Positions 3,281-51,963 of a DNA stretch of 64,000 nucleotides are shown in pieces. The DNA is from Protoeuglena noctilucae (lineage: Eukaryota): positions 496,001 through 560,000 of the forward strand of contig OY253675.1 in assembly GCA_958009085.1 (NCBI GenBank). Direction: 5' to 3'. A program made the position numbers and the translations under genes. How positions within the stretch are numbered: the first letter of the stretch is position 1; each line of letters opens with the position of its first letter. The notes under the pieces were generated by a model. That model saw only the letters and a program-made list of their open reading frames with translations, was not told the DNA's origin and made no database searches.

Positions 3281-5988
3281 ATGAGTCATGGTCGCGATCG
3301 AGACCCTCCGCCTGGCCAACGTCCTCTTCACGGTGCTTCCATTTGCAGCGGATTGTCGCGGACGCTTGCGCGAGCGGAGGCGGAGGCGTCGGCGACGCGC
3401 GCGGGACGGTTTGCACAGCACGTGATCATGGATGCTTTCGATGCTGCCTCCGCGCCGAACGCCGGCGCGCCCGTGCCACCCGGAGCGCAGGCCCACGCTG
3501 CTTCGACAGCAGCGACTGCCTCGGCCACCCCCGAAGCCGGGCCCCTGCGCCCAGCGCCCGCGATCGACCCGTCGCGTCTGGCAGCGGACGCCTCACCGCC
3601 CCGCGAGCCCACGAGCACGGCCGAGGCGGCGGAGGCGTGGGCGCGTGAAGCCGCACTGCCGGTGGACGAAGGCGTGGCGAGGGCGGGGGCCGCCAGGGTG
3701 GCTGGGGTGGCGCGGGAGGAGAAGCCGGAGACGGCGTTCCGCGCGGAAGCCGGGGGCGCGAGGGCGGAGCCGGGCGCTGGGTCGATGCCGGGGCCTGATG
3801 TGAGGCGTGGACCGGAGGACCCATCAGGAGCTGTGTCGGTGCGCGGTCGAGAGCACCAGCAGTCACCGGGAACGAAAGAGGGCATGCGCAGTGCTCGTGT
3901 CTTGCGTGAGGCTGCCGTGCCGTCCTCGTCTCTGGGGCGGGTGCTTGGGTTCGGGTCACTGGCGGCCAACTTGGCGTGGGGTGCGGTGGGGGACGTGGTG
4001 TCCCGGCCCTTCCGGAGACAGCAGGTGAGAAGATTAAGAGTTGGTTGTGTGCTGTAGCTGGCGCTGAAAAGGTCATCCACCCTTTGTTTGGGTGTGACCC
4101 AGCCGGGTGGTTAGCCCGGGGCGCCACGGGAGTCGCCTGGCCCAGCCGCATCCTCACATTTATTCCCAGCGCATTCGCAACGTTTCAGCACCGTGCTCAC
4201 CGGGATTTGACGGATCCCATCCCCTTGGGTGCTGCCCCGCAGGAGTCGGACCCAGGCCGTAGCGTGCTCTCGCCTCGCAACGCCGAGGTCCTCGCCGAGG
4301 GTCTTTGCCGCATGCGCGGCGCGGCGCTGAAGCTCGGGCAGATGCTGTCGATCCAGGACGAGGGAATGCTGCCACCGGCGGTGCAGGCGGCGCTGGAGCG
4401 CGTGCGGCAGGGTGCTGACGTGATGCCGCAGTGGCAGCTGGAGAAGGTGCTGGGGGAGGAGCTCGGGAATAAGTGGCGGGAGCGTTTCTCGGAATTCGAC
4501 ACGCGGCCGATGGCGGCCGCCTCGATCGGGCAGGTGCACCGCGCGGTCACGCGGGCGTGCGACGTGGTGGCAGTCAAGGTGCAGTACCCTGGCGTGGCCG
4601 AGTCCATCCACGCCGACATCGACAACCTCATGCGGATGCTCCGCGTCGCGAACGTCTTCCCGCGCGGGATGTACGTCGAGCAGGCCGTCGCCGTGGCTAA
4701 GGCGAGTGTCGCTGTTGCTGTTGCCGGTGGTGGGGCAGTGGGTGGGGCAGCAGGCGAGCGTTGCCGGTGTTCTCGGCGCTCGCAGAAGGAGCTCTCAATG
4801 GAATGCGACTACCACTACGAGGCACAGGCGCAGGCGCGATTCCGGGAGCTCATCCACACCGACGATTTCCTCCGGTGAGGCCAGCCGGCTGGGTTAGGTC
4901 TCGCTGCGGCTCCACAACTCGCGATTTGCAAAAGGAGGTCCTACTGCTAAACAATTATAAATCCTAACCAGCTTTTTATGCAACATGCTATCTCATACAA
5001 ATCGCAGGTCCCAGTTCAATGTGCCCGAGGTCTTCCCGGACCTGTGCTCTCGCCGTGTACTCTGCTCCCGGCTCGTGGCGGGCGTTCCGATCGACCAAGT
5101 GGCGCAGATGCCCAGCGCGGTGCGGGACGAAGTCGGGACGCGGCTGCTGAGGTGACTCGCCTGCTTCCCTTGGGTCCACACTCCCGGGTTACGAGCGCCT
5201 CACTCCTGCGCCCGCTCCCAGCGGCACTCCGGCCGCAGCCACCTACCTGCACTCACAAGCACACCAACACCCGCCCCTGTCCTCCGACCGCAGGCTGACG
5301 CTGCAGGAGCTGTTCGGCTGGCGTTTCATGCAGACCGACCCCAACTGGGGCAACTTCCTCTACGACCCCGACGAGGACCTCGTTCATTTGATCGACTTCG
5401 GCGCCGCGCGCGAGTACCCGAGGGCCTTCGTGGACGACTACATGCGCATGGTGCGGGCGTGTGCCGAGAGGGACCGCGACCAAGTCATCGAGAGGTCCAC
5501 GCGACTGGGATTTCTGACAGGCGAGGTGCTACTGTGTCGCTTATATCCTGCAGCTGACTGGTAGGGTAAGTGGGCATCGCACCTGCTCTTACTCACACCT
5601 TACACGGTGGGGTCGCCCGTTGTTGGTTGCAGGGGACGAGTCGCGTGTGATGCTGGACGCGCACGTGGAGGCGGGCTTCGTGGTCGGAGAGCCCTTCGCG
5701 GCGCGTGGCGATTTCGATTTCGGCAGCCACAACGGCCTCACGGCGCGCGTGGGGCAGCTGGGGTCCGTGATGCTGAAGCACCGCCTCACACCGCCCCCAG
5801 AGGAGGCCTACTCTCTGCACCGCAAGCTGTCGGGGGCCTTCCTGGCTTGCATCAAGATTAAGGCCCGCGTGCCTTGCCGGCGACTGTTCTATGAGATGTT
5901 TGACCAGTATGAGTTTGGGGACGTGGGGAATGTGGGGGCGGGCGCGGGGATGGAGGGGCATAGGCTGGGGCGCGCCGTGGGTGGGTGA
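3281..5988 (+). CDS. COQ8: ABC1/COQ8-like atypical kinase, mitochondrial type
   Basis: Motifs [74 protein letters not shown] across GT-AG exons and one GC-AG intron (4702-4785). Start approximate. Confidence 0.92.
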
Positions 5989-6413: not shown

Positions 6414-9026
6414 TCAGAGCTCCCCCCCGGGCTTGCGGAAGGACAGGCACTTGGACGCGCTCCCGAGCATCTTCGTTTCTGGCGTGAGCCCCGCGTCCAG
6501 GCCCAGCTGCCCCAGGTCAGTGCGGACGTAGTCCCGGTACCAAGGCTCGTTGAAGTCTCCTGTGGATGACATTGGGGTTGACAAGATAACGGGTTGTAAG
6601 TGCAGTCTGCAGAGCATCGCCACCAAGCACATTGTACAGCGTCGCCCACACGTACATCCAGCATCACACCACATCACATCATGCCATGCACATGACTCAC
6701 CGAACCGACCGATGCGTGCGTCCCTGTCCGGGCGATCCCCGAGCTGAATCGAGTCGTTGACGATCAGGCGTCCATTGGGACGCAGCACGCGGCTGGCTTC
6801 CTTGAAGAAAGGGACTCGCGCATGCAGGGGAATCTCATGGAGCATGTACGTCGACGTGACGATGTCAAGAGATGCGTGTGGGAACGGCAGGCTCTCTGCT
6901 TTGCCCTGGACGAAGCGGGCGGTGCCCACGCGGGTCCCCTGGTTACGCTCCTCTGCACCGCGCGTGCGCTCCCTGCAGGGGCGATGATAGGGGGGGTATG
7001 AGTGGATGGATGGGTGACATGCATGGCGTGGGGTTGATGAGTGGATGGTGGATGGGTGTCGAGGGGTAGCCGGAGTACGATCCGTAGCACTACTAAGAGG
7101 GACAGGCGGAGAGCGTCCAGCAGTGGCTGTGCAGTCGCAGCAGTAACTGCCACACCAGTTCTCATGGTTCTTCCGCGCTTCTTCGAGGTAGAAGGGGCTC
7201 AGGTCGAGCATGGTGACGCAGGCGGTGGGGTGGTTGTCACGGACGAAAGTCGCGAAACGACCCGTGCCGCAGCCGACCTCCAGCACGTCCATCGCTGCGA
7301 GAGAAAGAGAGAGTTGCGCTGCTATCACGTTGCTTGGTTGTGAACGTCAGTGTATTGTAATTATGCATTTGTGGTCCCCATGGTGACATCGCTTGCAGTG
7401 TCAATATCGCCCTCACTATCCTTCCCTCACCTCGCCCCTCCCTCGCCACCTCCTCCGCCCCCGCCCGCATCGGCACCAGCGTCATCCGCTGCATCGCATC
7501 CTGCCTCCCCAGGAAGAGCGTCTCGGTGGACGTCTCGTACACTGACGCCGAACGCGAGCTCATCCAACCGTCCGTTTGGAAGTGGTAGGTCTGGCGGTAG
7601 TAGTCGGGGTACTGAGGGAACGAGGGGATGATAGGGTTGTGCTGGTAGAAAGTGGCGCGTCTGGCAATAGTAGTCAGGGTACCAAGGACTGGAAGTTAGT
7701 GAGCCAAAGCTGTGTTGCACTCGTGGCACCACCCAGCACTTACCATGTCCTAGTCCAGCCACACACCTCCATCTCAAGCAAGCTCCCATCAGTCACCGCT
7801 GACCATGTCCGCCACATGTAGTCAGCCACATGTCACAACCAGTCTCGCATCCATCGGTCACCCTCACCATGTCCGAGTCGAGCCACACGTCCTCCGGCTT
7901 GCCCCTCTCCCTGCGCCCCAGCACCCCCGTGGCTTCCTGGAAATATTCGACTGCCTTCCTGGCCATATACACCGGGTTACGCTGCCGGTGGCCTGGCGTG
8001 CTCATGTCCCAAGGAAGCCGGTACTCCCCCGCACGCACACACTCCAGGTCCTGCGCAGACACGCGGTCGAGTGCCAGAGTCGCACCGTCTGACTGGCATG
8101 GTGGAGCAAGATGACAGCAGCAGAGGGTAGGGTTGCAATGCTCTATCGGCCCGACATATGTGGCAGCTTGACCGTCACCCCATCAGCACCCCTGCTCCCT
8201 CGCCTGCTTGAACATGGATGCCGCCTCGCTCACAAGCGTCGTGAGCGGCACGCCGGCCTTGCGGGGCGTGGTCAGGCTGAACCCCACCACGCGCTCGGTG
8301 TCCACTCCGGCGAGCGAAGAGAGGGCGACCGATGCCACGCCCTGGGTCGCGAAGAAACCCATGCGGGCCAGGTGGTATGCCCAGTACTGCATGCCGATGG
8401 CATCCGAAAAGGCCCCTGCCTCCCGGAGGCGGTCCAGGGACGCTCGTAAGGCCTGGGAGGGAGACGGCGAGATTTGTGACACGGTAGGCGGACATGATGG
8501 GAGGGATGCGATGAAATTTGATAACACGGTTGGCGGACGCTAGCAAAGAAAGACCACAGTGGAATACCGCACAAAGCGCAAGGAAAGAGGCTATGATGGC
8601 CGTGTGAGAGGGCACGCACCTCGAGCGGGGAGACGTCCAGCGATTCCTTCAAAAACGGGCGCCAGGACTCCCATCGCGCCACGCTGCTGTGTAGCTGGAA
8701 GCGCTGGTTGTCCAGCTGGCCCGGCCGCTGCTCGAGCGGAGGGATGTCCTCGCCCGCATCTGCCGCGGGAGTGGCGTTGAGCAAGGGTGTTGCCCGGGCC
8801 GGCACAGCGGTGGAAAAGGTCTGCGGACAGCACGGTACTAATACATGTAAGCGAAATGAGAGAATGGGTGTGTCGAGGGGGCAAAAGTACGCACGGGTGC
8901 GTTGCGCGGGGACTCGCAGGCGCTGCGCCAACAGACCTGGGAGGCTCGTGCCCGGATGGCCCAGGAGGTGGCGCGTCCGGACGAGAGCAACCCTTCCCTC
9001 ACCACAAGTCTAACGGCGGAGCGCAT
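6414..9026 (-). CDS. Class I SAM-dependent methyltransferase (type 11), probably plastid-targeted
   Basis: Motifs VLEVGCGTGRFATF, LDLSPFYLEEAR, YPDYY..FHYQTDGW, LHEIP, RVLRPNG, FNEPWY. R/S/A-rich N-terminus from ATG 9026. Confidence 0.85.
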
Positions 9027-10633: not shown

Positions 10634-11067
10634 GGATCGACAGGGCGTGAGGCGTGGGGAGCTGCCGCGGGTCGCAGAGGGAAATCCAAGGAGTGAGGCT
10701 TTGTCGCAATACAGAAGACACTACAAACGTTCCATATGGCATGCATTGGACCCCGCAGACGCGCGCAGCGCCTCGCTCCCCCGCCCTCAGCAGTGCAGCA
10801 CGGCCTCCGCGTGCACGGATGCCATCGGAGCGCCAGGTCGAAGGCACAACTGAGTATCAATAACCGCTGCGTTGCCCACCTGGACCGCGACGGATCCCCG
10901 CGCGGCCCGACGGGCCGCCGCTGCCCTTGGCCGAAGGCCGCTGAGCCTCGACGTCCTCAGCGTCACGGTCATGATGACAGCGTTTCGTGTCGCGATCTCG
11001 GTCGGCAAGCGCGGCGCTCGGAGGTGAATTTCGTCTCACCATCGGGAAAACCGCGAGTCTGGCGTCA

Positions 11068-11200
11068 GTAGGATCATCCCCGTGATACCCAGGAATCGTG
11101 GGGATCATCCCGCTGATCCCGGGGTATCAGAGGGATCATCCCAGTGATCCCACTGACGACACAGACTGTAATGTAAACCCTCATTGAGCCCAGTGATTCC
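11068..11200. repeat. Left subterminal repeat array of the transposon
   Basis: Recurrent GGGATCATCCCNGTGATCCC-like units, i.e. direct and inverted GGGATC motifs. Confidence 0.85.
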
Positions 11201-12416
11201 AGCCGCGCGCCCGATCTCCCTGGGGAGGCCGTTTTACGCGGCGCGGTTACGGCCACGGCGCACCCGGGATGCGAGAGGCCGCTGGGAGCAGTTTCGCGGC
11301 ATTTCGTCGTGGTCGGGGATCGCGGGGAGCGGGGCCCACTCGGGAGCGCAGCGGCGCCGGAAGCGTTAGCCGAGGCTATCCCGCCGCCTATCTTCCTTCT
11401 CGGCCGCGATCAGACCTATCTTGATCGCGATCGGACGCATCTTTTGGGCACGCGCGCTCCGGGGCCCGCGCGGCCCGGGGGGCTCCGTTCGGCCCGTAAT
11501 CGCTCCCTAGCGTAGCTATTGGTATTTCAATCCCTACGCCGAGGTTACATGACCATCCGTGACGCTCTAGGCAACGCACTCATGCACGCACATGCAGCCG
11601 GACTCGGGCGGCCGCAGGCGCGACGGGAGCGCGCAGCGACCACCGCCAGAGGCACCGACCGCTTGTTCCGGACGCTGCCGCTCCATCGGGGAGCGGCGCT
11701 CCGGCACTCGGGCCAGGCACTCGGGAGATGGTGGCGTGCGCGACTCCGCCGTGCCGACGGCCGCCCCAGGAGTCGATGACCACCGCTGCGGGGCGCCGCG
11801 GACGCCAGACGACAGACAAGGGGCATGGGTCGGCGGACGAGCCATGGCGGGCCCGGCCAGCACCCGACCAGCGCCGGAACTTGGGACGAGGTGGCACGTG
11901 CGCCTGCGTGCTTGTTAGGCGAAGTTAGAGTCAGTCTCGGGGTGAGAGAGTGCAGGCACGGTGCCAGGTACAGTAAGCAAGTACAGAGATACCACGCTGG
12001 CGGACCAGCCCTTCGTCCCTCCCAGCCAACCAACCCCCCCTTGCACACCTGACCGTGTCGCAGACCCCACCGGTAGCGCAGCAGACCAACCGCGCACCTC
12101 GGGGACAGCGACAATGTCCGACCTGATCAGGTCATGCGTATGCTGCATCTCACCTCACGGGAGCTGGCCCCTCCCCTCCCCAGCCACGTCAGCACACCTC
12201 GCAGATGGCTCAGCAGCAGGCTGCACTCTCACCCTAGAGAGGGACGATGATCCAGCGCTGTTCGCACCAGCAGCGCCGAGCCTCGCCTGTGCGCGGTGCT
12301 GTCGCTGCAGCCCTGCAATCCACCCCCGCTTGCCTGGAGGACTGACGACCCCTGAGCCTGCCTGACCCACAGAGCGCGCGCTGGACTTTCCTCACCTCCG
12401 CTTCCACGCCCTCACC

Positions 12417-15400
12417 ATGCCCGCCTTGAACCCTGCATCGCAACCTGCGCTGCAGCTCACCATGCTCGAATGCGACGCGTGTGGAACGCAATTCGATACC
12501 CCGGCCAAGCTCGCCCGGCATCAGCAAAGATGCCCTGCGCTGTGGGGCTGGAGATATGGCGAGGAGAGCCGCCAGGAAGCACCCCGCCCCGCCGCCCCAC
12601 ACGAACACTATGTCTCTCCGTCTCTGCGAGGCTCGGACGGGCTGGCACGCGACAGCGCCAGCGCGGGACCAGACCAAGAACTGCGGGAGGAAGACGGGAC
12701 GGCGGACGTTGCTGCGGGCAGTGATGGCGAGAGCGAAGATGTAGGACTCGCGTGGCTCCACTACGCCGACACGGACGTGGACATGGACGTGGACATTGAC
12801 TCGGAGAGGGGTGAACCGCCCGAGAGCGCCGGAGCGCATGATGCGCCCCAAGAGGACGCTCCTGGAGTCTCCTACCTTCCTGCGCCCGGGGAGTACGAAC
12901 CGCTGAAGCTGCCGGAGGACCTGGAGGCATGGCGGGCCAGGAGCAGGGACAGTGACGATGAGTACCTGAGCCAACTTGAAGCAGGGGCGCAGTTCATGGC
13001 ATCGCTGACGGCAGCGCATTTCGATTGCTTCGTGAAGCTGCGCCCCGACATCCGCGACGACCTTCTCGACCTCGGGCGCTCCCACCGCACGTTCCACACC
13101 TCACTCAACAGCATCCATGGCCAGTACGAGGTGCGTCACGCCGCGGTGCCGCTTGTGTCGAGGGCCTCGGACGCGGCCGAGGGGGCTGACGCCAACCAGT
13201 GCACGCACGGCCTGCAGGTTTTGCAAGAGGAGGGCAGCACAACCATCATCTACCAAACGATAACGGTGCTGAGGGACATGCTGGTGCACGCGGAGCAGAT
13301 CAAGCCCAAGACGCTCGTTAAGTTGATGCGAGACTTCAGCGAGGCACGGGAACGGTCACGCCAGGCGCGGGCGAGACCACATGAGACGCATCCCAGCATC
13401 CACGAGAAGCTCACCTTCTCCCGGGCGAAGGGGTATAGCGACATAGCCGAGGCTGTCGCTGGCAAAGTCCGCCCCGAGCTGCACGCCCGGCTGCTCCTCG
13501 TGCCCGTCGCGTACAGCATCGACGGGGTGGAGATGACCAAGGGCGCATCGACGACGCCCATCCACATGCACCTCCTGTCGCCTTGCAAGGCCGTGAGGAC
13601 AGGGACGCCGCGAACCGTGGCCACCGTCGAGTCCATGAAGGCGAGAGGAGGATTGCCGGCGTTGCAGCCCACACGTCCACCACCACGCCGCGTGTATGAG
13701 TTGTCGCTCGAGGCCCCCGCAGGTGTCCGGGATCACTCCGGGGTCACAGGCAGACCTGAACAACAGAGAGGCCATCCAGCGGCGGCTGGCTGCCGTGGAC
13801 CGGCAGCTGATTGGCGTGGCGAGGTCCGGTGGGGTGTGGATGACCCTCCCCGACGTCGGGAGAGTCATCGTCTTTCCCGTCTTGGCGGCGCAGCTGAACG
13901 ACATGATGGCCAACTCGTCCACGCTGGCCGTCAGGTCGTGCCCGCTGTGCCTCCAGGATGACTGCCGCACGCCTCGCACCGTCGCGCTGCATCGCCTCCA
14001 GGTGCAGCACATCCTGCGCTTGAGGAGGGACGTGGGGACGGCCAGGGCCAACGAACAAGCCAGGGAGAGCAAAATTCATCCTGTGGTTCCTGCCCTGTCG
14101 TACTGGGACGAGTTCGGGTCGGACTTGTATCAGGGCCAAGCACCTGACCCCATGCACACCGTGGAACTGGGAATGTTGGGCAAGACTGTTCCCTTCTGCA
14201 TACTGACCGTCCTCTACAACAACGCGGCAGCGGGAGAGTCTGCGACAAAGGCAAACGCCCTCTTGGCTGCGTTCGCATCGATCATTGCGGATGCCAAGGT
14301 GAGCTGCAGGTCAGGCAATGGCGTGCGTTGCCTGCAGTGGCGCCGCAGCTGCTCGGTATTCACCTGGCATGTCCATCGTCGTGTGGGTGGAGCGCAGGCC
14401 CCGGCATGGATCCACGCCCGTCCGTGGGGCGAGACCTTCCAGATCGTGCTGAGCCTCGTGGACCCGTTTGGGAAGATAAAGGCGTACGAGGCGAGGTTCT
14501 TGATCCAAGCTCTGCCTTTCGCCCTCGTCGAGCTCTTCTCTCGAGGCGAGGCCGACAGTCAGCGCTGCGAGGGCATCGGGAGGAGCTGCGGGTATCGCGA
14601 TGCGGGCCGGGGAACCCCGGGAGTGTTTCCCCACCACCACATCCCTTGCAGAGCCTACGGGCAGCAAAGACGTGCACGACGAGAGGGTTGGGCTCGTGGC
14701 CGTAGCCCTGGCATGCCTTCAGCTCTATGCCGAATGGTCCCTGGAGAGCGCCACCATCGCAGGGGCGCAGGCGGCGGACGCGCAGCTGAATAAGGTCCTC
14801 CACGTGAGGCCTTCTCCAACACCAGCCCCATCGTTCGCTGCCCCTTACTCACTCTGGAAGCCTTGTCGCTGCCGTGTCGCCGCAGGTCGTGCTCAAGACG
14901 CTGCTGCGTGGCCACGAAATCGTCCGCACGGAGAAGCCCCTCTTCAGCAAGATCGAGAACAGCCAGAAGTGCCACGCGCTTTCGCATTTCCCTGCAGTGG
15001 TGGCGAGGAACGGCTCCATCATGTTGGGCAGCATGAACGACGCCGAGCGCATGCACAAGCCCATTGCCAACGCGCGCACGAACGGCAAGGGCGACGTGCA
15101 GGTACAGGCAAGAAGCGCCGCCCAGCGTAGGCGACGCGGGGAAGCCCACGCAGGACGCGTTTCTTGCGACTCACACGTCTCGATGCGGTCGCACGGCGCT
15201 CGACCCGCGTGCCATGCTGAGCCGCGCTGGACTGACCCCCGAGCCCTGTCGCAGGCGAGCACCAGCGTCATCTCTCAGAGGGCGGCCTCCGTCATCAAGA
15301 GCCGGGCGAGGGCGGAGCAGCCGGTCCCGTCCCAGCCCGAGGACCAAGTGAAGGGCGTGAAGACCGTCCTGAAGAAGAACGACCTGTGCAGCGAGGGACG

Positions 15401-15920
15401 CGCGGAAGACTTCGTTTCTAAGGCGGACCTCCTGAACGCCCTCAAGGGCGCGGGGCTTCCCTGCCACGTCTTGGGCGAGGTCGCGCTGACCTCCACGGTC
15501 GAGATCGGGACGGCCAGCGGGGACCGGGCCAGGATCGTCGCCACCGACGAGACCCTGTCCTTCGTCGAGTACCTCCCGGACAGGGGCACGCTGCAGACGG
15601 GCAGGGTCGTGTGCGGGGTTGAGGCGAAGACCAGCTCCGGTGCCGGGACCTTCCTCTGCGCCCTGGTGGCCCCGGTGCACAGGGCCCCATGCGACCTGAG
15701 GTACCTGTCCAACCAGTGCTTGTCGTTCTACACCAACCTGGGAGCGCTGCAGCCTCCCCAGCTGTCGCTCCTGGAGCCTGCGGAGGGCGAGGCTCTGAAG
15801 TGCGTGCCCCTCCGCAACCTTCGGCGGCAGCTTCACGCCGTGAAAGTTGCTGGGAAGCTTCTTCACTGCGGCCACGTGCAGCAGGTCTGGGAGCACCACG
15901 CCAGCGGCGGCGAGGAGTAG
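12417..15920 (+). CDS. Plavaka-type DDE transposase with N-terminal C2HC zinc finger (~964 aa, 7 exons)
   Basis: Proposed introns 13131-13217, 13641-13722 (GC), 14299-14397, 14546-14651 (GC), 14804-14885 and 15102-15254 give a stop-free 2895-nt frame. Motifs: CDAC..LARHQQRC, YSIDG..TPIHMHLLSPCKAVR, LPDVGRVIVFPVLAAQLND..CPLC, PDPMHTVELG, KCHALSHF..RNG..AERMHK. Confidence 0.8.
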
Positions 15921-16463
15921 GTGACCCCAGGAGCTCCCCGATGCTCGCGGTGCCAGGTCCCCGACGCCGGCGATGTCATCTGTATCGAGATAATTCTCCG
16001 AAGCCAGCCCCGCGCCCCCATCCGCAGCGCCATGACGGCGGGGACGGCTCACCTCCCATGCAGCAGCCACCTCCGTGCGGCGTAGCCGGCAAAGGCGCCG
16101 CAGCTAGCGAGATTTAGGTCACCTCAATCCATAGGCCAAGCGCTGCGTGCCCGATCGCGGCCGCGGCGGCGGTAGGCCTGGTCGAGCACGGGGACCTCCC
16201 CGGCGCCCCCGGGGGCCCGGCGAGCCCGCGAGCTCCCGCTCATCGCATAGATATGGACATCTCACGTTGAACAGCGGCGGCGCAGGGGAAGCGGACCCCG
16301 GATGCGTCGACGGCCCCCGTCTGCATGCTGGAGCAAGCTTTAGGACGCGAGAGGGGCCTCCGAGGCAGTCATTAGCACCAACTAGCAAATGTGCGGTCTC
16401 TCCGCCTCCTCTCGAGCCCCCTGAGCAAACGCGGGGGCGCGCACGCGCGTCAGGGCCGCGGCC

Positions 16464-16581
16464 CGGGATCGCTGGGATCACTGCGGCAGTGGCGGGGATC
16501 GCCGGGATCACGGGGATGATCCCGGCGATTCCCGGGGATCACTGGGATAAATCCAGTGATTCCCGCGATCCTTCTGATCCG
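16464..16581. repeat. Right subterminal repeat array (9-bp unit GGGATCRCN, direct then inverted)
   Basis: gggatcgct gggatcact ... gggatcgcc gggatcacg gggatgatc ... agtgattccc. Confidence 0.85.
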
Positions 16582-16809
16582 AGTGACGTCAAATCGCCGG
16601 GTTTTCCCGATGACCCTTTGCTTTCAGGTATGCCCTCGTCACTGGCGTGATGGAAATATGCCGGCAAACCGTCTTCAGCCCATGCCGCTGCGTTGCTCGC
16701 TCACTGTTCCGGGGGTGCAGCTGGTGAGCGCGACGTAGCATCCCTCTGAGGGCTTAATCGGGGCAGGGATGCCGTCCCTGCCCGCGAGGGTGCTCGGGGA
16801 GCCGGCACA

Positions 16810-17902
16810 ATGAAGGGGGACGGAGGGAAGGGCGGCCCGAGCGATGCGGGGGTGAAGGACCTCCTCGCCCTGCGCAGCTACGTGCTGAGCGTCACTTCGC
16901 TCGGTGGGTTCGCTTGTTGAAGCGCCCTTCGTCTTTTCCCCGCTCCTCCTGTGCCTCCCATGCAGCCAATCGTCATCTCTGCCTCGCAGGGGACCGCGTC
17001 GATGCGCTGCGTGGCTTGCTGCTGACCCTCTGCGAGCGCATGAGCAGCCAAGTTGACGCGCAGGACGGACGCCGTCGTGTGAGGCTCCCGAGAGCCATGG
17101 CCGTCGCCGTGTGCTGTGCATCCCGAGACACTCTGGACCAAGGTACGCACGCGCACGTCGAGTCGCCGTGACTGCGCATCGAAGCTCGGCTGCAGCGATG
17201 TTTGCAACCGTCACACCCGGCGCAGTAGCGGAGGCGCTCGCCGGCCTGCCGCGCACCGCGCTGTGCGTGCTCCACGGCGACTTGGGCGTCGAGCGCGTCC
17301 GTGGTGCCGCCGAGGAGTTCCGGGAGTGGGAGACGACCTCAGCGCGGGTCACGGCGGAGGCGGCCGGGGACATCGATGTGCATGTCATGACTCGCGAGGA
17401 CATCCGGGAGCACAACGAACGGTTGCGACAGGCCTGGCTGTCCCGGCCCTTACTGCACGCGGTCGCGGCATCGGATGTGTGCCTGTCCGCTTGGCCCGGG
17501 TCCCTTGGCGTGAACCTCTTGCTCCACTTCGACCTCCCTGCCAAGCGGGACGTCCTGCGGAAGCGAGAGGCGGCCATGCTGTCTGTGGACCCCGCTGCCG
17601 TGGAGGTGAGGCGGCAGCCCGAGGACTATGCGAAGTGCCAGGGCACATGTAGGCACTTCACTTGGTGATATGCGTGGGCTCGTACTACTGTGAATGGTCC
17701 AACCTCGTGCATCCGGCGCTACTTACCGCGCCGAAACGCGGCGTGGACGCAGGTGCGCGCCATGCTGGAGGACGAGGGTGAGCGTGCGGCACGTGTCGAG
17801 GTGCTGATGGCGACTCCGGAGGAAGAGGGGCTCGTGGGGCAAGTCACGCGCGGGAAGATCGTGGAGCCGCTGCCCATCGACGTGCAGGAAATGTTCTCTT
17901 GA
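16810..17902 (+). CDS. Degenerate DEAD-box/eIF4A-like protein consisting of the helicase C-terminal domain only
   Basis: RHLCLAGDR, VAVCCASRDTLDQ, LCVLHGDL, LLLHFDLPAKRDVLRKR and C-terminal IVEPLPIDVQEMF resemble RecA domain 2 of eIF4A-like helicases. No Walker A or DEAD motif. Confidence 0.65.
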
Positions 17903-21603: not shown

Positions 21604-21756
21604 CATGACCCGGTGTTGTTGTTATCTCTCCACCTCGCGGCGCTCCTTTCCCAGAGTCGTGTAGCTCGTGCAATCCGCACCGACGCACTCAGATCCAGCG
21701 CCACCCTGCAGTGGCTGCCATTTGGCGCAACGTGATTGCAATGGCACGACGGTGAT

Positions 21757-24321
21757 CATCGGGAAAACGACGGATTTGACGTCACTCGGATCAGAAGGAT
21801 CGCGGGAATCACTGGAGTCATCCCAGTGATCCCCGGGAATCGCCGGGATCATCCCCGTGATCCCACCGATCCCCGCCACTGCTCCAGTGATCCCAGCGAT
21901 CCCGGGCCGCGGCCCTGACGCGCGTGCGCGCCCCCGCGTTCGCTCAGGGGGCTCGAGAGGAGGCGGAGAGGCCGCACATTTGCTAGTTTATGGTAATGAC
22001 TGCCTCGGAGGCCCCTCTCGCGTCCTAAAGCTTGCTGCATCATGCAGCCGGGGGCCGTCGACGCGTCCGGGGTCCGCTTCCCCTGAGCCGCCGCTGTTCA
22101 ACGTGAGGTGTCCATATATATGCGATGAGCGGGAGCTCGCGGGCTCGCCGGGCCCCCGGGGGCGCCGGGGAGGTCCCCGTGCTCGACCAGGCCTACCGCC
22201 CCCGCGGCCGCGATCGGGCACGCAGCGCTTGGCCTATGGATTGAGGTGACCTAAATCTCGCTAGCTGCGGCGCCTTTGCCGGCTACGCCGCACGGAGGTG
22301 GCTGCTGCATGGGAGGTGAGCCGCCTCTGCCGTCATGGCGCTGCGGATGGGGGCGCGGGGCTGGCTCCGGACTGTTATGTTGCTATAGATGACATCGCTG
22401 GCGTCGGGGACCTGGCACCGCGAGCATCGGGGGGTTCCTTCCTGGGCTCACCTACTCCTCGCCGCGGCTGGCGTGGTGCTCCCAGACCTGCTGCACGTGG
22501 CCGCAGTGAAGAAGCTTCCCAGCAATTTTCACGGCGTGAAGCTGCCGCCGAAGGTTGCGGAGGGGCACGCACTTCAGAGCCTCGCCCTCCGCAGGCTCCA
22601 GGAGCGACAGCTGGGGAGGCTGCAGCGCTCCCAGGTTGGTGTAGAACGACAGGCACTGGTTGGACAGGTACCTCAAGTCGCATGGGGCCCTGTGCACCGG
22701 GGCCACCAGGGCGCAGAGAAAGGTCCTGGCACCGGAGCTGGTCTTCGCCTCAACCCCGCACACGACCCTGCCCGTTTGCAGCGTGCCCCTGTCCGGGAGG
22801 TACTCGACGAAGGACAGGGTCTCGTCGGTGGCGACGATCCTGGCCCGGTCCCCGATGGCCGTCCCGATCTCGACCGTGGCGTCGTAGAGCTGAGATTGTG
22901 CAGCCCCCCCTCCCTTGCCAGTCAAATACGCGACTTCGAGTCGTCCCGAAAAACGCCCACGCTTTTTTTCACGAAAACCCGATTCTGACAGGGGTTTTAC
23001 AACACCCGCCTTCGAGTCCCGCCACCACCGCCGGCGCACCGAAACCGCTGGAAAAGGCGTGAGTCCTGCCACCCGGGTTCGAGTCCTGCCGAAAAGCACA
23101 TACTTTTACGCGCGCCAGGAATTGAACCTGCCACCTTCAGACTTCGGGCGGATGGTGAGAGTGTAGCCTGCTGCCGAGCCATCTGCGAGGTGCGCTGACG
23201 TGGCTGGGGAGGGGAGGAGCTGGCTCCCGTGAGGTGAGACGCAGCATACGCATGACTAGATCAGGTCGGACAGTGTCGCTGTCCCCGAGGTGCGCGGTTG
23301 GTCTGCTGCGCTACTGGTGGGGTCTGCGACACGGTCAGGTGTGCAAGGGGGGGTTGGTTGGCTGGGAGGGACAAAGGGCTGGTCCGCCAGCGTGGTATCT
23401 CTGTACTTGCTAACTGTACCTGGCACCGTGCCTGCACTCTCTCACCCCGAGACTGACTCTGACTACGCCTAACAAGCACGCAGGCGCACGTGCCACCTCG
23501 TCCCAAGTTCCGGCGCTGGTCGGGTGCTGGCCGGGCCCGCCATGGCTCGTCCGCCGACCCATGCCCCTTGTCTGTCGTCTGGCGTCCGCGGCGCCCCGCA
23601 GCGGTGGTCATCGACTCCTGGGGCGGCCGTCGGCACGGCGGAGTCGCGCACGCCACCATCTCCCGAGTGCCTGGCCCGAGTGCCGGAGCGCCGCTCCCCG
23701 ATGGAGCGGCAGCGTCCGGAACAAGCGGCCGGTGCCTCTGGCGGTGGTCGCTGCGCGCTCCCGTCGCGCCTGCGGCCGCCCGAGTCCGGCTGCATGTGCG
23801 TGCATGAGTGCGTTGCCTAGAGCGTCACGGATGGTCATGTAACCTCGGCGTAGGGATTGAATTACCAATAGCTACGCTAGGGAGCGGTTACGGGCCGAAC
23901 GGAGCCCCCCGGGCCGCGCGGGCCCCGGAGCGCGCGTGCCCAAAAGGTGCGTCCGATCGCGGTCAAGATAGGTCTGATCGCGTCCGAGAAGGAAGATAGG
24001 CGGCGGGATGGCCTCGGCGAACGCTTCCGGCGCCGCTGCGCTCCCGAACGGGCCCCGCTCCCCGCGATCCCCGACCACGACGAAATGCCGCAAAACTGCT
24101 CCCAGCGGCCTGGTGCATCGCGGGTGCGCCGTGGCCGTAACCGCGCCGCGTAAAACGGCCTCCCCAGGGAGATCGGGCGCGCGGCTGGAATCACTGGGCT
24201 CAATGAGGGTATACATTACCTTTTGCGTCGTCTGATACCCCGGGATCAGCGGAATGATTCCAGTGATCCGGAGGATCACGGGGATGATCCCACTGACGCC
24301 AGACTGGCGGTTTTCCCGATG
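21757..24321 (-). mobile_element. Non-autonomous, internally deleted copy of the 11040-16612 transposon in inverted orientation
   Basis: TIRs CATCGGGAAAAC...GTTTTCCCGATG; 2-bp TSD AT (21755-56 and 24322-23). 21757-22879 is the reverse complement of ~15493-16612 and 23154-24321 of ~11040-12233, with scattered substitutions and indels. Confidence 0.95.
22442..22879 (-). pseudogene. 3' remnant of the transposase gene
   Basis: Translates to TVEIGTAIGDRARIVATDETLSFVEY...WEHHASRGEE, nearly identical to the C-terminus of the 12417-15920 product. Confidence 0.9.
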
Positions 24322-24761
24322 ATTGAATCAGCCAAGACCTGCAGCGTCCCTGTTAGTGGGCGATACACGACATCGCGAGCGCAAAGGTTCATCCTCTCCC
24401 TCAAATCTCCTGTGCAACCCATCACGGCCAGCAATCTCTCGTCCCGTCGCTGAGTGTGCAACCAAGTGGTGAGCTGCGGAGGATGATTGTGAAGATTAGT
24501 TCGTCGTACTGTGTTGCATGTGGCGGCAAATGCGGCAGAAGTGAACGAGCCGACCCCGGAAGGGGTGACAATCTAAACACATTCGACGCGCGCCCGGTCT
24601 TGGGAGACGCTGTTTGCGCCTTAAGACATGTAATTGTGGTCGATCTCTGTCGGCTCGCTTGCAATCCACTGTGCCACGCCCCCGCAGCGCGACGCAGGCG
24701 TCCGCAAAGTGTGCCCCGCCATCGACCGGCATCCTGGACGCGCCCGGCGCGAGGCGCTGCA

Positions 24762-29394: not shown

Positions 29395-32316
29395 ATGTTC
29401 GGCGGCATCCCGTTCGGCGATGCCTTTTTCGGGGGGATGGGGGGGATGGGGGGCGGGGGTCCCAGCGGTCCCCGGAAGCCCGTAGACAACAAACGGTGCG
29501 TTCAGCGCGGGCAAACGCTCATCGGGTCTCGCATGCGCCGCTCAGTCCCCGCCGGGAGCGGCCCTCGACGCGGCCCCCGTGCCCGTTCTGGAACTTTTCT
29601 GGGGACGACAGGGCCTCACCCGCGGCTGCCCGCTGCGCGTATGGGGCCCGAGAGCGGGGATATCCAGAGCATTTCCGAAGCCCACGACTGACATCGGGGA
29701 TGCGGGAGTGGCGCCCCGTCGCGAGCCCGACCCCTTCAGCCCCGCCCGCAGGTTCTACGAGCTGCTGGGGGTCCCTCAGGACGCGGACGATAAGACTATC
29801 ACGAAGGCATATCGCAAGCTGGCGATTAAGGAGCACCCCGACAAGGCGAGCGCGCTCTCCATTTCTGGGGGCCCGTTCGCGCCACCCGGGGCGCCTCCGC
29901 CGCCCCTGCGCTTTGCCGCGGCGTAATGAGCTCGAGTTGACGCGGGCGGCTCGTCGGCGCGCGCGGGGGCGGCCGCCCGGCACGCCTCGGCGGCTGAGTT
30001 CGAGAGGACGCCCGCCTCGAGCCGCCGGGCGGCGCGGCGCGGCCTCCGATGCCTGTCCTGTTGTGTCGTGCTTTCGCGAATGCGGTGGCGCCCCTCGGTG
30101 TGCCCGCCCGCCCCCCGCCTCGGCGGACTGCCAGCGGCAGCCGCGGCGCCCGAGGGGCGCGCCGCCTCCGTTTCCCGCCGGCCCCGGGGAGTGAAGATCA
30201 TATTCTTTCCCCAGATGATCGGAGCTGATTCTAATGTGCTGTCGTTTGGTCCTTCGGGACGTCAAGCCAGTCGAATCTGACCCCGGTGCCGGCCGGCCTT
30301 CCCCCGCCCCCCCGCGTTACGCCGCTGCTCTGTCCTGTCATCTGACCTGTAACCTGCACTCACGTGTGGCCACGACCTCTGCTCGCAGGGTGGTGACCCC
30401 GAGAAGTTCAAGGAGATCAGCCAGGCGTACGATGTGCTCAAGGACCCCAAGAAGCGCGAGATTTACGACAAGTATGGCGAGGAGGCGATCAAGGAGGGCA
30501 TGGGGAACGGGCCGCAGCGGTCCGCCATGGACATCTTTTCAGGTGATGCGGCGCAGCTGGCCGGCCACGTGCTTGTGCATGCCTTGGGGATCGAGTCCGG
30601 CTTTGTTGCAGTCGCGATTGTCGCCCGCGGGGCAGCCGTGCGCGAGGCACAGTACTTCCACCCCCACGGCCAAGCATGCGCTGACCACCTGACGGCTGCC
30701 CTTGGCCTGCCCTCGCAGATCTCTTTGGTGGGGGCCGCGGGCGCGACCAGGAGTCGCGGGGCGAGGACGTGAAGCACGTTCTCAAGTGCACGCTGGAGGA
30801 GTTCTACACGGGGGCCACGCGGCGCCTGGCCATGACGCGCGAGGTGGCGTGCAGCACGTGCCGGGGGACGGGCACCAAGAGCGGGCGGGAGGCGGTGTGC
30901 CAGGGTTGCCGGGGCCGGGGTGTGGAGGTGGTGGTGCAGCGCATGGGGCCGATGATCACGCAGATGCAGCGGCCGTGCGGGGCGTGCGGGGGCACGGGCA
31001 AGGGGGTGGACCCGAGCGACCGTTGCGACGGGTGCCGGGGTGCGCGGACGGTTCCGGAGAAGAAGATCATGGAGGTGGTGATCGAGAAGGGCATGAAGCA
31101 CGGCGACCGGGTGGTGCTCAAGGGGGAGGCGGGGTTCAGCGGGGACTCCTCGGTACCCCCCGGGGACCTCATTTTTGTGCTGGACCAGAAGGAGCACGAG
31201 ACGTTCAAGCGCGCCCGCTCGGACCTCATCATGGAGAAGCGCATCTCGCTCGTCGAGGCCCTGTGCGGCACGCGCGTCCCGGTCAAGACGCTCGACGGCC
31301 GCACCATCGTCCTCACGGTCCCCCCGGGGGCCACCGTGTCACCCGACGGCTTCCAGAGGGTCACGGGGGAGGGCATGCCCACGCGCGGCAACCCCTTCCT
31401 CAAGGGCAACCTCTACGTGCGATTCGAGGTCGACTTCCCCAACCGCATCGACCAGGCCACCGCGGAGGCGCTCCGGGCCGCCCTTTCGCAGATCCCGGGG
31501 CAGGCGCCCGCGCCAGGTGAGCGAGCTTTTGCTTGTCGCGAGCCGCTTGCGAGGTCCCGCCCGCGGGGCAATTTCGAGGTGGTTTGGCTGACACCGGCTT
31601 TGCTGGGAGGTGGTGTGGGTGCCGGTGACGACGCTACGCCACAAAGCTCAAGGCGCCGGGCGACGTCGGGAGCCGGCTACGCCGGAACGAACCCTCCCGG
31701 CACGCACGGCACGTCCCCTGCGACGCCTTGGGTGCTCTGCACCCCTGCGCGCCCCGGGGGGCCCTGCCGCTGTGGATACGGCGCAGGCCTCGCCTGCAGT
31801 CCGAGGCACGCACCGCCTTGTCATTTCGTTTCCTTTGCGCTCTTGCGTTTCGTTCGGGGCGCGGGCGTGGCCGATGATCGAAGAGATCCAAAATGGGCTT
31901 CCGTCCTCAAAGACATTCGCAGGGCCCGCTCTAGAGCTTTCCCCTCGCGCAGGGTCGAGAGCTGATGCGGCTCAACCTTCCTTGGATGTCTGATGGCCAC
32001 GCCCCGCCCCCTTGCGTTCCTTTCTCCCGCCCCTTTCCTCCCTGCCCCCTCACGCCGATTCTGCCTGCGACATAGCCCCGCGCCCGCCATACCCCGCCAT
32101 CCTGTTTCTGCTTGCTGGTGCTCAGCCTGGCTGCCGCCGTCCCCCTTCGCAGCCATGGACTCGGACGACGCGGAGGAGCACGTCATGCGGCCCGTGGCCG
32201 ACATCAAGTCCGAGCTGCAGGACCGGGCCCGCGACCAGCAGGGTGGCGGCGCGTCGTACGAGAGCAGCGATGACGAGGGGGCCGGGCCGCAGCGCGTGCA
32301 GTGCCACCAGCAATAG
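29395..32316 (+). CDS. Type I DnaJ/Hsp40 co-chaperone (DNAJA), farnesylated
   Basis: J domain with HPDK|GGDPEKF, four CxxCxGxG repeats, GEGMP..KGNLY, and C-terminal CaaX-type VQCHQQ*. Confidence 0.95.
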
Positions 32317-32800: not shown

Positions 32801-34951
32801 ATGGAGCGGTTGGCCTCCATCGCCAGTAGCTCGGCACATTGTCGTGCTGTGATTCGTCCGGCGCGTGGGTGGCGGGCATGGGGCCGGCCTGGCCTCGCGC
32901 CGGGGAGCCAGGGCGGCAGGCGCGCTCCCCGCCTCCGCGCATCGGCCGCCCGAGGCGCGCGGGGCCGGCAGGCCGCGGCCCCGACCAAGAGTGACGCTGC
33001 CGTGGAGGGCAAGGGCCTCGGCGGCCGGCTAGCGCAGCTGTTCGGCGAGCTGGAGCGGGGCGACCCTCGAGTACGGCAAAAGGCGAGGCCCCCGCACGAC
33101 GCCGCAGCGGCGCGGGCGGCCGCTGCGCTGACCTGGAAGCGAGTAATTTTTTGATGCTTGCTGATGCACCGCGGCGCGCCGTGCCCCTGCAGCTGGCCAC
33201 GGAGGTGTCTCTCAACGGCATGTGCTCACTTGCCACCGAGGCCTGGGTGCGTGGCGAGAACTTCATGCAGGAGCTTCCCATCGTGGCGAGGTGAGCTTGG
33301 ATTTCGAGCCGGAAGCCCCGGGCCGAGGATCGTCGCCCCCTGCGGTCACGCAACAACGTCTCGCCCCTCCTGTTGTGCAGCGACCTGGTCATCGGCACGT
33401 GCGTCTGCGTCACGCTGTTCGTCTTACTCGCCCCGAAGACCTCCGACCGTCCGGTGGCCCAGGGCCGCAGGCAAGTCCGGCCGAGATCATGCGGGGGCCT
33501 GCGGGGCCGCACACGGCCCCCGATCTTCGCCGACGCCGGGCCTCGTCGTGATCCGCAGGCGGACGATATCGCAGCGCATCCGCCACCTGCGCCGCACCAC
33601 CAGCCGGGGCGTCAAGACGTTCGTGGAGCGTGTGTCGGCCGAGGTGGACAGCCTTCCGGCCTTTGCCGCGGACCGCGGGCAGAGTTACACTCCCCTGCAG
33701 CGCGCCGCTGCGGTGGCGTACACGGGCGTGCGCTTCGCCTGCGTCGGGATCGTGGGCGGCGGCCTTGGGCAGGCAGCTACGGACGCGCTCCTGGCGACAA
33801 CGGCGGCGAACCGTGCCACGGCCGTGGCGACGGCAACCGCGACGGCCGGGTCCGCCGCCGCCGGTGCCCTTGCCACTGCGGGTGCCGGCTCCGGCGCCGG
33901 CGCCACCGCCGCGGCCGCCACCGCCGCCACCGCCACCGCTGCTACGGCCACCACCACCGCCGCCACCGCCACTGCCGCGGCGACCACGGCGGCCTTCTCC
34001 CTCGAGGCCTCCGCGGCCCTCTCGGCCGCCACCGTCGCCGCGTCCGCCACAGCCGCGTCCCCCGCCGCGCTCTCCGCCGCCAACGTCTTGTCGGTGGCTC
34101 CCGAGGCTCTGGCCCCCGTCGTCGGCGTCGGCCTCTGGGACGTCGCCATCTCCACCGCCGCCGCCGCCGGGCCCGCTTTGTCCCTGGCGGCTGCCACCCT
34201 CCCGCTCCTCGACTTTGCCTTCGAGGGCCTCACCCCGGAGGTGGAGGCCGACGCCCTCGCCCTCGGCGCCACGCTGCCGTCCCGCGCGCTGGCCTTCCCG
34301 AGCGGCGGGGTCCACGCGCCCCGCCACGGAATGGACGTCATGGACGGCGCCCTCGCGGAGCTGCTCGCCCCGACCGCCTCCCCTATGGGCCCCTGGCCGG
34401 CCGCCGTGCGCGTCCACGGGTGCGCGGGGCCGGAGTTGGTCCCTGGCGAGGCCGCTGCAGAGACCCTGGCCCAGGCGCTGGCCGCGCTGCCCCCTGGCGT
34501 GGTCGACGCGCTGCCCGATGCGACGGAGGGCGCCGACGAGGCTGCCGCGCTGCTCGAGTCCTTCAGCGCCGTAATCGATGCTACCGACGCCCCCGAGGCC
34601 ACGTTTGGGGTTTTGGAAGAGGCCGTCGCTTTGCTGGAGTCCCTGGCGGGCTCACCGGAGGCGGGCCCCGCGTCGGCAGCGGAGGCGATCCAGCGCGCCG
34701 TCTCCTCGGGCCCCACGGGGTCCTCTCTTGATGGCGTCCTGGCCGCCGCGTGCGTGTGGGCCGTGTTCCTCGCCGTCTCGGCCAATGTCCGCTACCAGCT
34801 TCTCTGCGGGGTGGAGCAGTGGCTCGAGGGCACGCCTTTGGCCAAGCGCCCCGCTGTCATGGCCCTCGCCACCGGCGCCCTCCGCCTGGCAAACAACCTC
34901 CTCGGCTGCGTCCAGTTTTTCCAGATTGCCGCCCTCATTCGCCACCGGTGA
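32801..34951 (+). CDS. RETICULATA-related (DUF3411) plastid envelope protein with a long Ala/Thr-rich insertion
   Basis: DPRVRQK|LATE..RGENFMQEL..SDL..LLAP, YTPLQR, FLAVSANVRYQLLCGVE, LRLANNLLG, preceded by a transit-peptide-like N-terminus. Confidence 0.85.
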
Positions 34952-49500: not shown

Positions 49501-51963
49501 TGAGGCCGCGGAGAGGGAGGCGGCAGTCACGGCCGAGGAGAGGGCGAGGTTCAAACAACTGCAGGAGGAGATGGCGGACCAGGCGGCGCAGAGGTGAGGG
49601 GTAGTGGTGGGGGTGGTGGTAGTAGTGGTGGGTAGAGAGTTGTTGGGGTGGTAGGCGGGGTCAGTGGGCGCGGAGATAAGGGAAGCGTACATCCAGTCAC
49701 CCGTCACCACACACCCCACCCACACCCACACCCGCACCTACACCCACACACCCTCTTCCCCCCACCATCCCAGGGAGGGCGACCGCCGCCGTCGCCACGA
49801 GGAGGTCCTGGCTCAGCTGGCACTTGAGAGAGAGAAGCGGCTGCTGGAACTGGACACGGAATGGAGGAGGCGGGTGGCCCGGGAGGAGATGCTGTTGCTG
49901 GAGAAGCGGGCCAGGGAGGAGGCGGCGGCGGCGGGGGAGGCGGAGCAAAAGGTGAGGGGGGGGGTGGGGGGGGTGATAGATTTGAAAAATAGTGTCTGTT
50001 TTAAAAGGAGAGGGGTTGTTTTGTTGGGGCGAGCAGTATCGGCGATGGTCTACGCACACACGGCGCCTCCTCACTTCACGATGCATGAGTCCATGCTCTT
50101 CCTTACACCTATCCCAAACAACACACCTCTGTGATGTATTTCTGTGATGTATTATCTAATCCGATCGCAGGACGTGGACTCGGAGCGCCGTATGGCCCGT
50201 GAGATCGCGGAGATCGGCCGCCGGGTGCGCCGCATGTCCCAGGAAGCAATGCGGGCGTCGACGGACGTGGGGAGGGCGGTGCGGGGGAGGGGGTTCGGGG
50301 GCAGGCGGGACCTCAGCCGCAAGGGTGGCAGGGGCCAGGGGATGGGTGCTGGTGCTAAGAGGGGGAGGGGCGATGGTGACAGTGAGGGCGAGGATGCTTC
50401 GGAGGGGGCACTGTCTGGCACGCTCTCTGGCAGCGTGTCTGACTCTGACAATGGCGGTGGTGGCGGTGGGCGGAGGGGCGCGGGGTCGGAGGGGAGCGTG
50501 AGTGCATCTGAGTTAGGGAGTGGAATTGGGTCTGGGAATGGGAGTGGGAGTGGGTCTACGCCTTCCGGGGAGTCGATGCCCAGCCAGCGCACGCCGCCCA
50601 CCTCTGAGGTGAGGGGAGGAGGGGGGGTCTGTGATCGGCACTACGCGCTCACAGAGCGATGCACTCGCACCTCGTCAGTACAGCACAATGTCGCAGCACG
50701 AACGCCCTGGGACCCCCAGAACACAACCATAATCACCGCCCCGCACCCCTCACCCCTTCCCCTCTCTCACAGGACCAGCCCCCCATCACCATTGCCTACC
50801 CCGGCGGCGCCCGCGACACCCGCACGTCGACCCACACCTCCGGGGGTGCCTCCAGTACTCAAAACGTGCTCCGTGCTCCGCTCACCCCGATCTCCTCCTT
50901 CAACGTGCTCCACGCCCCGCTCACCCCGCACTCCTCGTCCACCACCACTGCTGCGTCCGACCGATCCGCCCCGCTGTCGGCCAGTGAGGGTCGCTCCATC
51001 GCCCGTGACGCCGCTGCCCTCGCGGCAGGGCTCACGAGTCGTGCTGCAGATGTGGATCAGTCACTTACTAATAGATCCGCGTACCCTGTTGCTGGAAACG
51101 TGACTGGGTCGGCTATGGGTGGGGCAGGGTACCCTATGGCTGCGTATGGGGGGTCGGTGGGTGGTGGTGGCTCCTCGGGGACGTCCAGCGATGAGGGGCG
51201 GTCGCGGTTTGAGGCTTTCTTCCCTGGGCCTGAGGTGAGGGTTGGGGTGGGGTGGGATGGGGTGAGGGTGGTGGTGGATGAGGGCGGGATTGGGGTGGGT
51301 GAGGGTGGTGGGGTGAGGTGTCGCCCACCTCACCGCGTTAAGGGGTGAGGGTCGTGCCAGGCGAGTGCGAAACTCTCATTTCCGAAACAGCAGTGACGTT
51401 CTCGTGCCCAGACACCTACGTGACTTAGAACTTGCCGCTCGTGGCTTACAGGCGGAGTTGGGAAGGCGCGGAGTGGGTATGAGGGCGGCGGGTGTGGACG
51501 GTGACGACCGCCTGAGCGACGATGGAGACGATGATAACGATATCGATAATGATGATAATGACGACGACTTGGACCCGATGTCGCTGGAGAGGGCGGCGGC
51601 GCTGGGGATGCAGGGGCGGGGGGCGGGGTCTCCGCTCGAGTCGGCACGGTCCGGGATGAGCTCGGGTGAGATTCGAAGATCAGAAACGGAGGCTTTGGGT
51701 GTATGTGTGCTAGAGTGCGCAGAGCTCGTGTTACGCAAGTCCAGTGGTACTTTGCTTTGGTCGTTACCGGTGCCTACCGTCTGTCACTGAGATCTGGCAC
51801 CAGTACTGAGATGCCCGCCTCTGTCCTTGCAGGGATGGATTGGACGCTGAGCCAGACGACGGGCGCGGTGAGGGGCATGGGTGGGGCAGGCGGGGCGCGG
51901 GGTGCAAGTGCGGCGGATGCGTTTGAGGAGGTGACGTCGGAAGAGACAACGTCCGGGGCGTGA
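44284..51963 (+). CDS. TBC1D31: TBC1D31/WDR67-like protein (WD40 repeats + TBC domain + long coiled coil), interrupted by an assembly gap
   Basis: GQIWSARP..DGHI, ADTRGNIYV..NRYRL, WD40 repeats, LRELLDSFGEYPERYR|TLIWRQLLRLPTNRAAFSSL, then E/R/A-rich coiled-coil exons. Confidence 0.82.
47211..47410. other. Assembly gap (200 N)
   Basis: Run of N. It falls where most of the TBC domain is expected, so the real gap is probably longer than 200 bp. Confidence 0.99.

Follow-up and report, generated by a model that had tools for sequence, protein, structure and literature searches.

The window analysed here is a 64,000-nucleotide stretch of contig OY253675.1 from Protoeuglena noctilucae (NCBI GenBank assembly GCA_958009085.1, positions 496,001 to 560,000 of the forward strand). 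It carries a mobile element at window positions 11040-16612 (copy 1, 5,573 bp), which consists of short terminal inverted repeats (TIRs), subterminal repeat arrays and a predicted transposase gene, and which is flanked by a 2-bp target site duplication (TSD). A shorter, internally deleted copy 2 lies at 21757-24321. We interpret copy 1 as a class II (cut-and-paste) transposon that is autonomous and belongs to the Plavaka lineage, with a probability of roughly 0.8, because its ends are PlavakaB-like, its TSD is 2 bp long and both the Pfam and the ESM Atlas results lead to this lineage. Membership in the wider CMCT clade is likelier still. The element is well formed, occurs in multiple copies and is plausibly still active.

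Ends and boundaries of the element

The two ends of copy 1 are built from the following features:

11038-11039, no strand: left TSD of copy 1 (AC), read directly; the same dinucleotide follows the right end
11040-11052, plus strand: left TIR CATCGGGAAAACC, 100% complementary to the right TIR
11071-11152, no strand: left subterminal array with a 31-nt period and GGGATCA/TGATCCC motifs, found by repeat and motif scan; probably transposase binding sites
16463-16565, no strand: right subterminal arrays with 9-nt and 31-nt periods, found by repeat and motif scan
16600-16612, minus strand: right TIR, exact reverse complement of the left TIR
16613-16614, no strand: right TSD of copy 1 (AC), read directly

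The TIRs are perfect over 13 bp, and inward of them the two ends keep an imperfect inverted similarity that is about 112 nt long (11040-11151 against 16612-16504, 72.8% over 114 nt). The 31-nt arrays comprise 2.7 copies on the left side (11071-11152) and 2.0 copies on the right side (16504-16565), and the 9-nt array of the right end covers 16463-16517. GGGATCA heptamers are concentrated in these regions: 14 of the 16 occurrences in the 64-kb window are located at most about 140 bp from one of the four element ends, one of the other two lies inside exon 2 of the transposase gene and one elsewhere in the window. The tip pattern, CATCGGGAAAAC followed by a gap of 6-7 nt and TYTGRCGTCA, has exactly four sites in the window, two of which delimit copy 2, and was not found in 100 shuffles. 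A TGTAA signal was searched for between the stop codon and the right end of copy 1 and is not present there.

The boundaries at 11040 and 16612 were confirmed in two ways. Similarity between copy 1 and copy 2 ceases exactly at the TIR tips in both alignments, and contigs of two other runs exit the element exactly at 11040 (runs X13 and X14) and at 16612 (X14), with flanks unlike those of the window. As at least three different flanks adjoin the exact termini, copies of the element occupy different loci. Both complete copies (2 of 2) have a 2-bp TSD. The duplicated dinucleotide differs between them (AC in copy 1, AT in copy 2), which shows that no fixed target such as TA is used. A sequence-only reading of this DNA had proposed a complete Plavaka/CMC-type TIR element whose ends are defined, with a 2-bp TSD, boundaries shared with a second copy and subterminal repeat arrays; all of this was borne out.

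JGI metagenome contigs were scanned for the TIR pattern, which gave only one locus, positions 7001-7028 of a GC-rich contig. It was rejected as a relative and regarded as a chance match, since it shares only the 28-nt terminal pattern with the window, shows no other similarity and has no subterminal repeats.

Gene model of the transposase

The interior of copy 1 contains a single predicted gene on the plus strand:

12417-13592, plus strand: exon 1, 392 amino acids (aa), with a zinc-finger-like motif, an acidic linker and SIDG (D367); from open reading frame (ORF), GC content at third codon positions (GC3) and motifs
13593-13722, plus strand: predicted intron 1, 130 nt, GTGAGG..GCAG; from the frame change 0 to 1 and GT..AG
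13723-14298, plus strand: exon 2, 192 aa, with QLND (D449), CPLC (C465/C468) and DPMH; the part matching Pfam Plavaka, from the profile match
14299-14442, plus strand: predicted intron 2, 144 nt, GTGAGC..CCAG; in frame and stop-free, retention possible
14443-14557, plus strand: putative exon 3, 38 aa
14558-14651, plus strand: predicted intron 3, 94 nt, GTCAGC..GCAG; sole in-phase GT..AG pair, frame 1 to 2
14652-14803, plus strand: putative exon 4, about 51 aa
14804-14885, plus strand: predicted intron 4, 82 nt, GTGAGG..GCAG; from GT..AG and phase
14886-15101, plus strand: exon 5, 72 aa, with HALSH (H703/H707) and AERMH (E727); from ORF and motifs
15102-15221, plus strand: predicted intron 5, 120 nt, GTACAG..TGAG; from a GC3 dip and GT..AG, the weakest call
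15222-15920, plus strand: exon 6, 232 aa and stop, C-terminal domain; GC3 of 0.8-1.0 in frame 0

The GC3 profile runs in frame 0 from about 12400 to 13600, in frame 1 to about 14560, in frame 2 to about 14800 and again in frame 0 to 15920. All three frame changes are bridged by a GT..AG pair in the correct phase. Joining of the six exons from the ATG at 12417 results in a frame of 977 aa without internal stops, interrupted by five GT..AG introns. The exon joins are predictions from frame, GC3 and GT..AG pairs, and the start codon is inferred. The donors and acceptors of the five predicted introns resemble those of four host introns that are spliced in an RNA contig. Neither intron 2 nor intron 5 shifts the frame or contains a stop; therefore, the reading frame does not force either of them. 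The stop-free frame proposed by the sequence-only reading was recovered, with six exons and five introns instead of the seven exons that had been counted.

The spliced model contains, from the N-terminus, a CDAC..H..C motif (residues 19-40), SIDG with D367, QLND with D449, CPLC (465-468), DPMH (534), HALSH (703-707) and AERMH with E727. SIDG, QLND, DPMH and AERMH had been named before, and they are all present in the reading frames, as are CPLC and HALSH. By motif inspection, D367, D449 and E727 are candidate catalytic residues. The N-terminal CxxC..H..C motif had been read as a zinc finger; the motif exists, and its match to the Pfam family zf-C2H2 has an E-value of 0.06, which is below the cut-off. 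The C-terminal domain encoded by exon 6 has no match in Pfam or NCBIfam. Minus-strand ORFs within the element were considered as a second gene and were judged to be GC-rich shadow frames by inspection of the ORF list only. No convincing second (TnpA-like) gene was recognised in the element.

Evidence for the Plavaka lineage

The Pfam search was carried out against 24,736 models. Exon 2 matches PF18759 (Plavaka) with an E-value of 0.0072 and 16.0 bits, the gathering cut-off being 26.3 bits, over profile positions 198-317 of 325. The score refers to exon 2 alone, and the Plavaka domain is split by intron 1. PF18759 was the sole transposase family reported, it had been named before the search, and the match spans the segment from the second aspartate over CxxC to DxxH. 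For exon 2, the profile search returned the family expected by the sequence-only reading, at a score that remains under the threshold. No other transposase family, including EnSpm/Tnp2/Transposase_21, was found in Pfam at E-values up to 10 for any exon or up to 1 for the long ORFs, and NCBIfam contains no transposase family matching the exons. In the ESM Atlas, 24 of the 30 neighbours of exon 2 are Plavaka clusters; the top score is 0.96, with 182 of 256 features shared. The other six neighbours have no Pfam family in common.

The termini were compared with published elements. In a published description (PMC12730594), Plavaka is split into PlavakaA with TGT..ACA termini and 2-bp TSDs and PlavakaB with 5'-CATCA..TGATG-3' termini and TSDs of 2 or 3 bp. 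The element has CATCG..CGATG termini and the TSDs AC and AT, and thus agrees with PlavakaB in both respects. Of 33 PlavakaB entries examined from its Data S1, 29 start with CATC, and in most cases AG(C/G)AAAA comes next; the exceptions are the four entries named '101'. The start of PlavakaB-1_RuGr, CATCAGGAAAACCG, is identical to CATCGGGAAAACCG of the element at 13 of 14 bases, and PlavakaB-1_PaIn at 13 of its first 15 bases. Base 5 of the element is G in place of the consensus A, a position at which the AuCo and GyCo entries also deviate; PlavakaB-1_AuCo has the same G. The sequence-only reading had taken the CATC termini as the mark of a divergent new algal family. This is not supported, since PlavakaB was published with CATC ends (PMC12730594) and the CATC terminus is therefore a hallmark of PlavakaB and not a departure from it.

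The motif set D/D/C(2)C/H(3)H/E was found by motif inspection in the spliced model as D367, D449, C465xxC468, H703xxxH707 and E727. CMCT transposases are described as having an H(3)H motif ahead of the E (PMC12730594); here it is located in exon 5.

Comparison with known systems

With the PlavakaB elements of Agaricomycotina, which belong to the CMCT clade (PMC12730594), the element shares the CATC start followed by an A-rich run and a TSD in the range of 2 or 3 bp. It differs from them in several respects. The host is a marine alga, and the element is 5.6 kb long, whereas those fungal entries whose lengths were examined reach about 6-24 kb. It carries neither TET/JBP nor another passenger gene. 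Furthermore, its transposase stays below the Pfam cut-off and found no fungal Plavaka in a phmmer search.

Plavaka-1_UTEX250 of the green alga Auxenochlorella is catalogued as complete and autonomous, its TIRs being 15 bp and its TSDs 3 bp long, and its family is called potentially active (bioRxiv 10.1101/2025.02.07.637104 / PMC12633428, Dataset S3). Both are complete, autonomous and potentially active EnSpm-Plavaka elements with short TIRs (15 bp against 13 bp) and possible deletion derivatives, from a green alga there and from a probable green alga here. The element described here differs by its length of 5,573 bp, its 2-bp TSDs and the lack of a convincing second gene. The plant En/Spm (CACTA) elements have CACTA termini and 3-bp TSDs, neither of which is found here, and a Tnp2/Transposase_21 match in Pfam is also missing. 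With Mirage (CMC), the 2-bp TSD is in common.

It had also been assumed that Plavaka elements are known mainly from fungi, which no longer holds. In addition to the catalogued Auxenochlorella element, Plavaka is reported from chlorophytes, streptophyte algae and red algae in a Spirogyra paper, and giant elements of this kind from red algae in a Bostrychia preprint. Reports of autonomous Plavaka elements from green algae date from 2025-2026. Among the papers listed by a full-text literature search for Plavaka transposons, none names this particular family.

Second copy, deletion derivatives and probable recent activity

The second complete copy in the window lacks almost the entire coding region:

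21757-24321, minus strand (inverted with respect to copy 1): copy 2, 2,565-bp non-autonomous deletion derivative, from alignment to copy 1

Copy 2 corresponds to element positions 11040-12233 (94.1% identity) and 15493-16612 (95.6%), which are joined by a 274-bp filler at 22880-23153. It is flanked by AT on both sides (21755-21756 and 24322-24323). The two copies differ by 4.7% (75 of 1,611 aligned columns; 40 transitions and 35 transversions), and no RIP-like or deamination bias was found among these 75 substitutions. Copy 2 belongs to a subfamily that is older or different. The filler is probably DNA captured during gap repair; no source for it was found elsewhere in the window.

The filler also holds several TTCGAGTC(C/G) motifs resembling tRNA T-arms. 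It yielded neither a tRNA call nor an Rfam match.

Further deletion forms were identified among public gene calls of other assemblies. In one type (P0001 and P0003), position ~14241 is joined to ~14366 across a 3-nt CTG microhomology, and in another (P0004), position ~14565 is joined to ~14851. Since these junctions have no GT..AG ends, they represent DNA deletions and not splicing. Together with copy 2, at least three distinct internal-deletion variants exist. Cut-and-paste elements with recent activity typically have deletion derivatives whose ends are intact.

In a culture-like run (X7) with contigs of up to 176 kb, both insertions are present at the same loci. A 2,905-nt internal contig of this run (12643-15547) shows no difference from the window. 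The depth of the flank contigs is 123-157 and that of the element contigs 1,355-2,797, a ratio of about 9-23 that was taken from assembled contigs and is not a copy number. Read cautiously, this depth points to roughly ten to twenty near-identical copies. One intact copy resembling a master, together with many identical copies and a number of deletion derivatives, suggests recent activity, and the element may be mobile at present.

Alternative explanations

Several results weigh against our interpretation of copy 1 as an active Plavaka transposon, in addition to the limited meaning of the depth ratio. The PF18759 score lies under the cut-off, and the match is confined to the final third of the profile. 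The first two thirds would be expected in exon 1, which has no Plavaka match at E-values up to 10 and whose C-terminal half gave no usable match in the ESM Atlas. An exhaustive phmmer search with the ORF at 13639-14793 (exons 2-3) against 1.84 billion representatives yielded no Plavaka protein of fungi or algae, and a word-indexed search among longer proteins (E-values up to 10) found no homologue. The TSD length is based on two complete copies only. No splice joint inside the element was detected in two metatranscriptome runs, where the RNA contigs are collinear with the DNA. Finally, neither empty sites (joints that skip the whole element) nor polymorphic insertions were found in the four runs examined, of which the uncovered parts are uninformative.

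The phmmer search returned only two matches, P0001 and P0002. P0001, the element's own cluster, is 99% identical and corresponds to part of a deleted copy of this element; P0002 was discarded as a spurious repetitive protein artefact. The scan of a viral contig collection with exon 2 revealed no relative, and phmmer against the sequences of the PDB gave nothing relevant. As a check for the RNase H-like fold of DDE transposases, AlphaFold2 was applied to exon 2 alone without an alignment and resulted in an unusable model (mean pLDDT 34.9).

The alternative that survives best, although we regard it as improbable, is a dead Plavaka element. The open frame would then be an artefact of the choice of GT..AG pairs in GC-rich DNA, the gene would not be expressed or spliced as modelled, and the deep identical copies would result from segmental or tandem duplication. 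The lack of spliced RNA contigs and of empty sites fits this explanation, as does the fact that two of the five introns are not forced by the frame; chance ORFs arise in GC-rich DNA, and many antisense ORFs of 200-300 aa are present. However, the frame-specific GC3 of 0.8-1.0 tracks the modelled exons exactly, each of the three frame changes is bridged by a canonical GT..AG pair in phase, and the catalytic-type motifs are all intact. The different flanks at the exact termini place the copies at different loci, and the deletion derivatives keep their ends as expected after recent cut-and-paste activity. With respect to the RNA, run X6 has a contig in which a flanking host intron, spliced out in X13, is retained, which indicates that the RNA libraries probably contain DNA. 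In addition, contigs drop rare forms. The lack of spliced contigs therefore does not argue against splicing. The continued mobility considered by the sequence-only reading is thus plausible from the depth, the identical contig and the deletion variants, and did not find support from empty sites or spliced transcripts.

More unlikely still is an element of the CMCT clade outside Plavaka, either Mirage-like with 2-bp TSDs, EnSpm/CACTA proper or from an unnamed algal lineage, in which Plavaka-like tips and a weak Pfam match would be clade-wide features. Subterminal repeats are a general trait of CACTA elements, the Pfam match is partial and below the cut-off, and the sequence searches found no Plavaka protein. 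According to PMC12730594, CMCT lineages also share CA..TG termini, TSDs of 2-5 bp and C(2)C/H(3-4)H motifs. Against this stand the CATCG..CGATG ends with a 2-bp TSD in place of CACTA..TAGTG with 3 bp, the lack of EnSpm/Tnp2 or any transposase family besides Plavaka in Pfam at E-values up to 10, the agreement of the tip with PlavakaB at 13 of 14 bases, which extends far past the shared CA, and the 24 Plavaka clusters among the 30 ESM neighbours.

Proposed mechanism and significance

For an autonomous Plavaka element, the following course of transposition can be proposed. The single intron-split gene would encode a transposase of about 977 aa, which would bind both the subterminal repeats of 31 nt and the tips with the conserved sequence CATCGGGAAAAC, pair the two ends and then excise the element. 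Reinsertion would take place with a target cut staggered by 2 bp, the repair of which would give the 2-bp duplication. Interrupted gap repair after excision could produce internally deleted non-autonomous copies like the one at 21757-24321. These would keep their ends and could be moved in trans.

The element is a further case of the Plavaka kind; transposons of this kind, their terminal sequences and their occurrence in green algae have been published before, and the understanding of how such elements work is not changed. With it, a lineage documented mostly from fungi and red algae, and also from green-lineage algae, gains a PlavakaB-type member from a marine alga that is compact, has a single gene and appears intact. 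It is mildly surprising that the terminal 13-14 bases are nearly those of fungal PlavakaB entries in the listed data while the transposase has diverged past ordinary sequence search. A conserved terminus combined with a very diverged transposase offers a handle on the bases which the enzyme must recognise. If active, the element and its deletion derivatives could be used for insertional mutagenesis and as marker sequences for strain differences in marine metagenomes.

A more far-reaching idea, which we consider doubtful, is that the element still moves today in wild marine populations of a small green alga. The near-identity of its terminal 13-14 bases with fungal PlavakaB, in spite of the strongly diverged transposase, would then mean that the tip CATC(A/G)GGAAAAC is a recognition and cleavage site which has been fixed throughout the Plavaka lineage since before the split of fungi and green algae. 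If true, biochemical work on Plavaka would have a defined substrate, and a marine picoalga would have a transposon tool of its own.

Host context and further features of the window

The window has a GC content of about 65% and contains host introns of the GT..AG type that are spliced in an RNA contig, which identifies it as eukaryotic. The element was found in marine metagenomes, metatranscriptomes and runs of coded organisms. GC content, introns, genes and marine occurrence are consistent with a marine green-lineage alga as host. Copy 1 is located about 160 bp upstream of a host exon (from 16771) that is transcribed and spliced. Two nearby host introns on the downstream side of copy 1 (16904-16989 and 17143-17228), each exactly 86 nt long, were confirmed by the RNA contig. 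They were considered as introner copies, which was ruled out by their sequences being unrelated to each other.

Several host genes were recognised in the window:

3910-4878: ABC1 atypical kinase
6414-7346: class I methyltransferase
30685-31965: DnaJ with C-terminal and CXXCXGXG domains
33155-34951: RETICULATA-like

The region 47500-52100 is G-rich, with a GC skew of up to 0.27, and contains several imperfect G-rich tandem arrays with periods of 21-84 nt.

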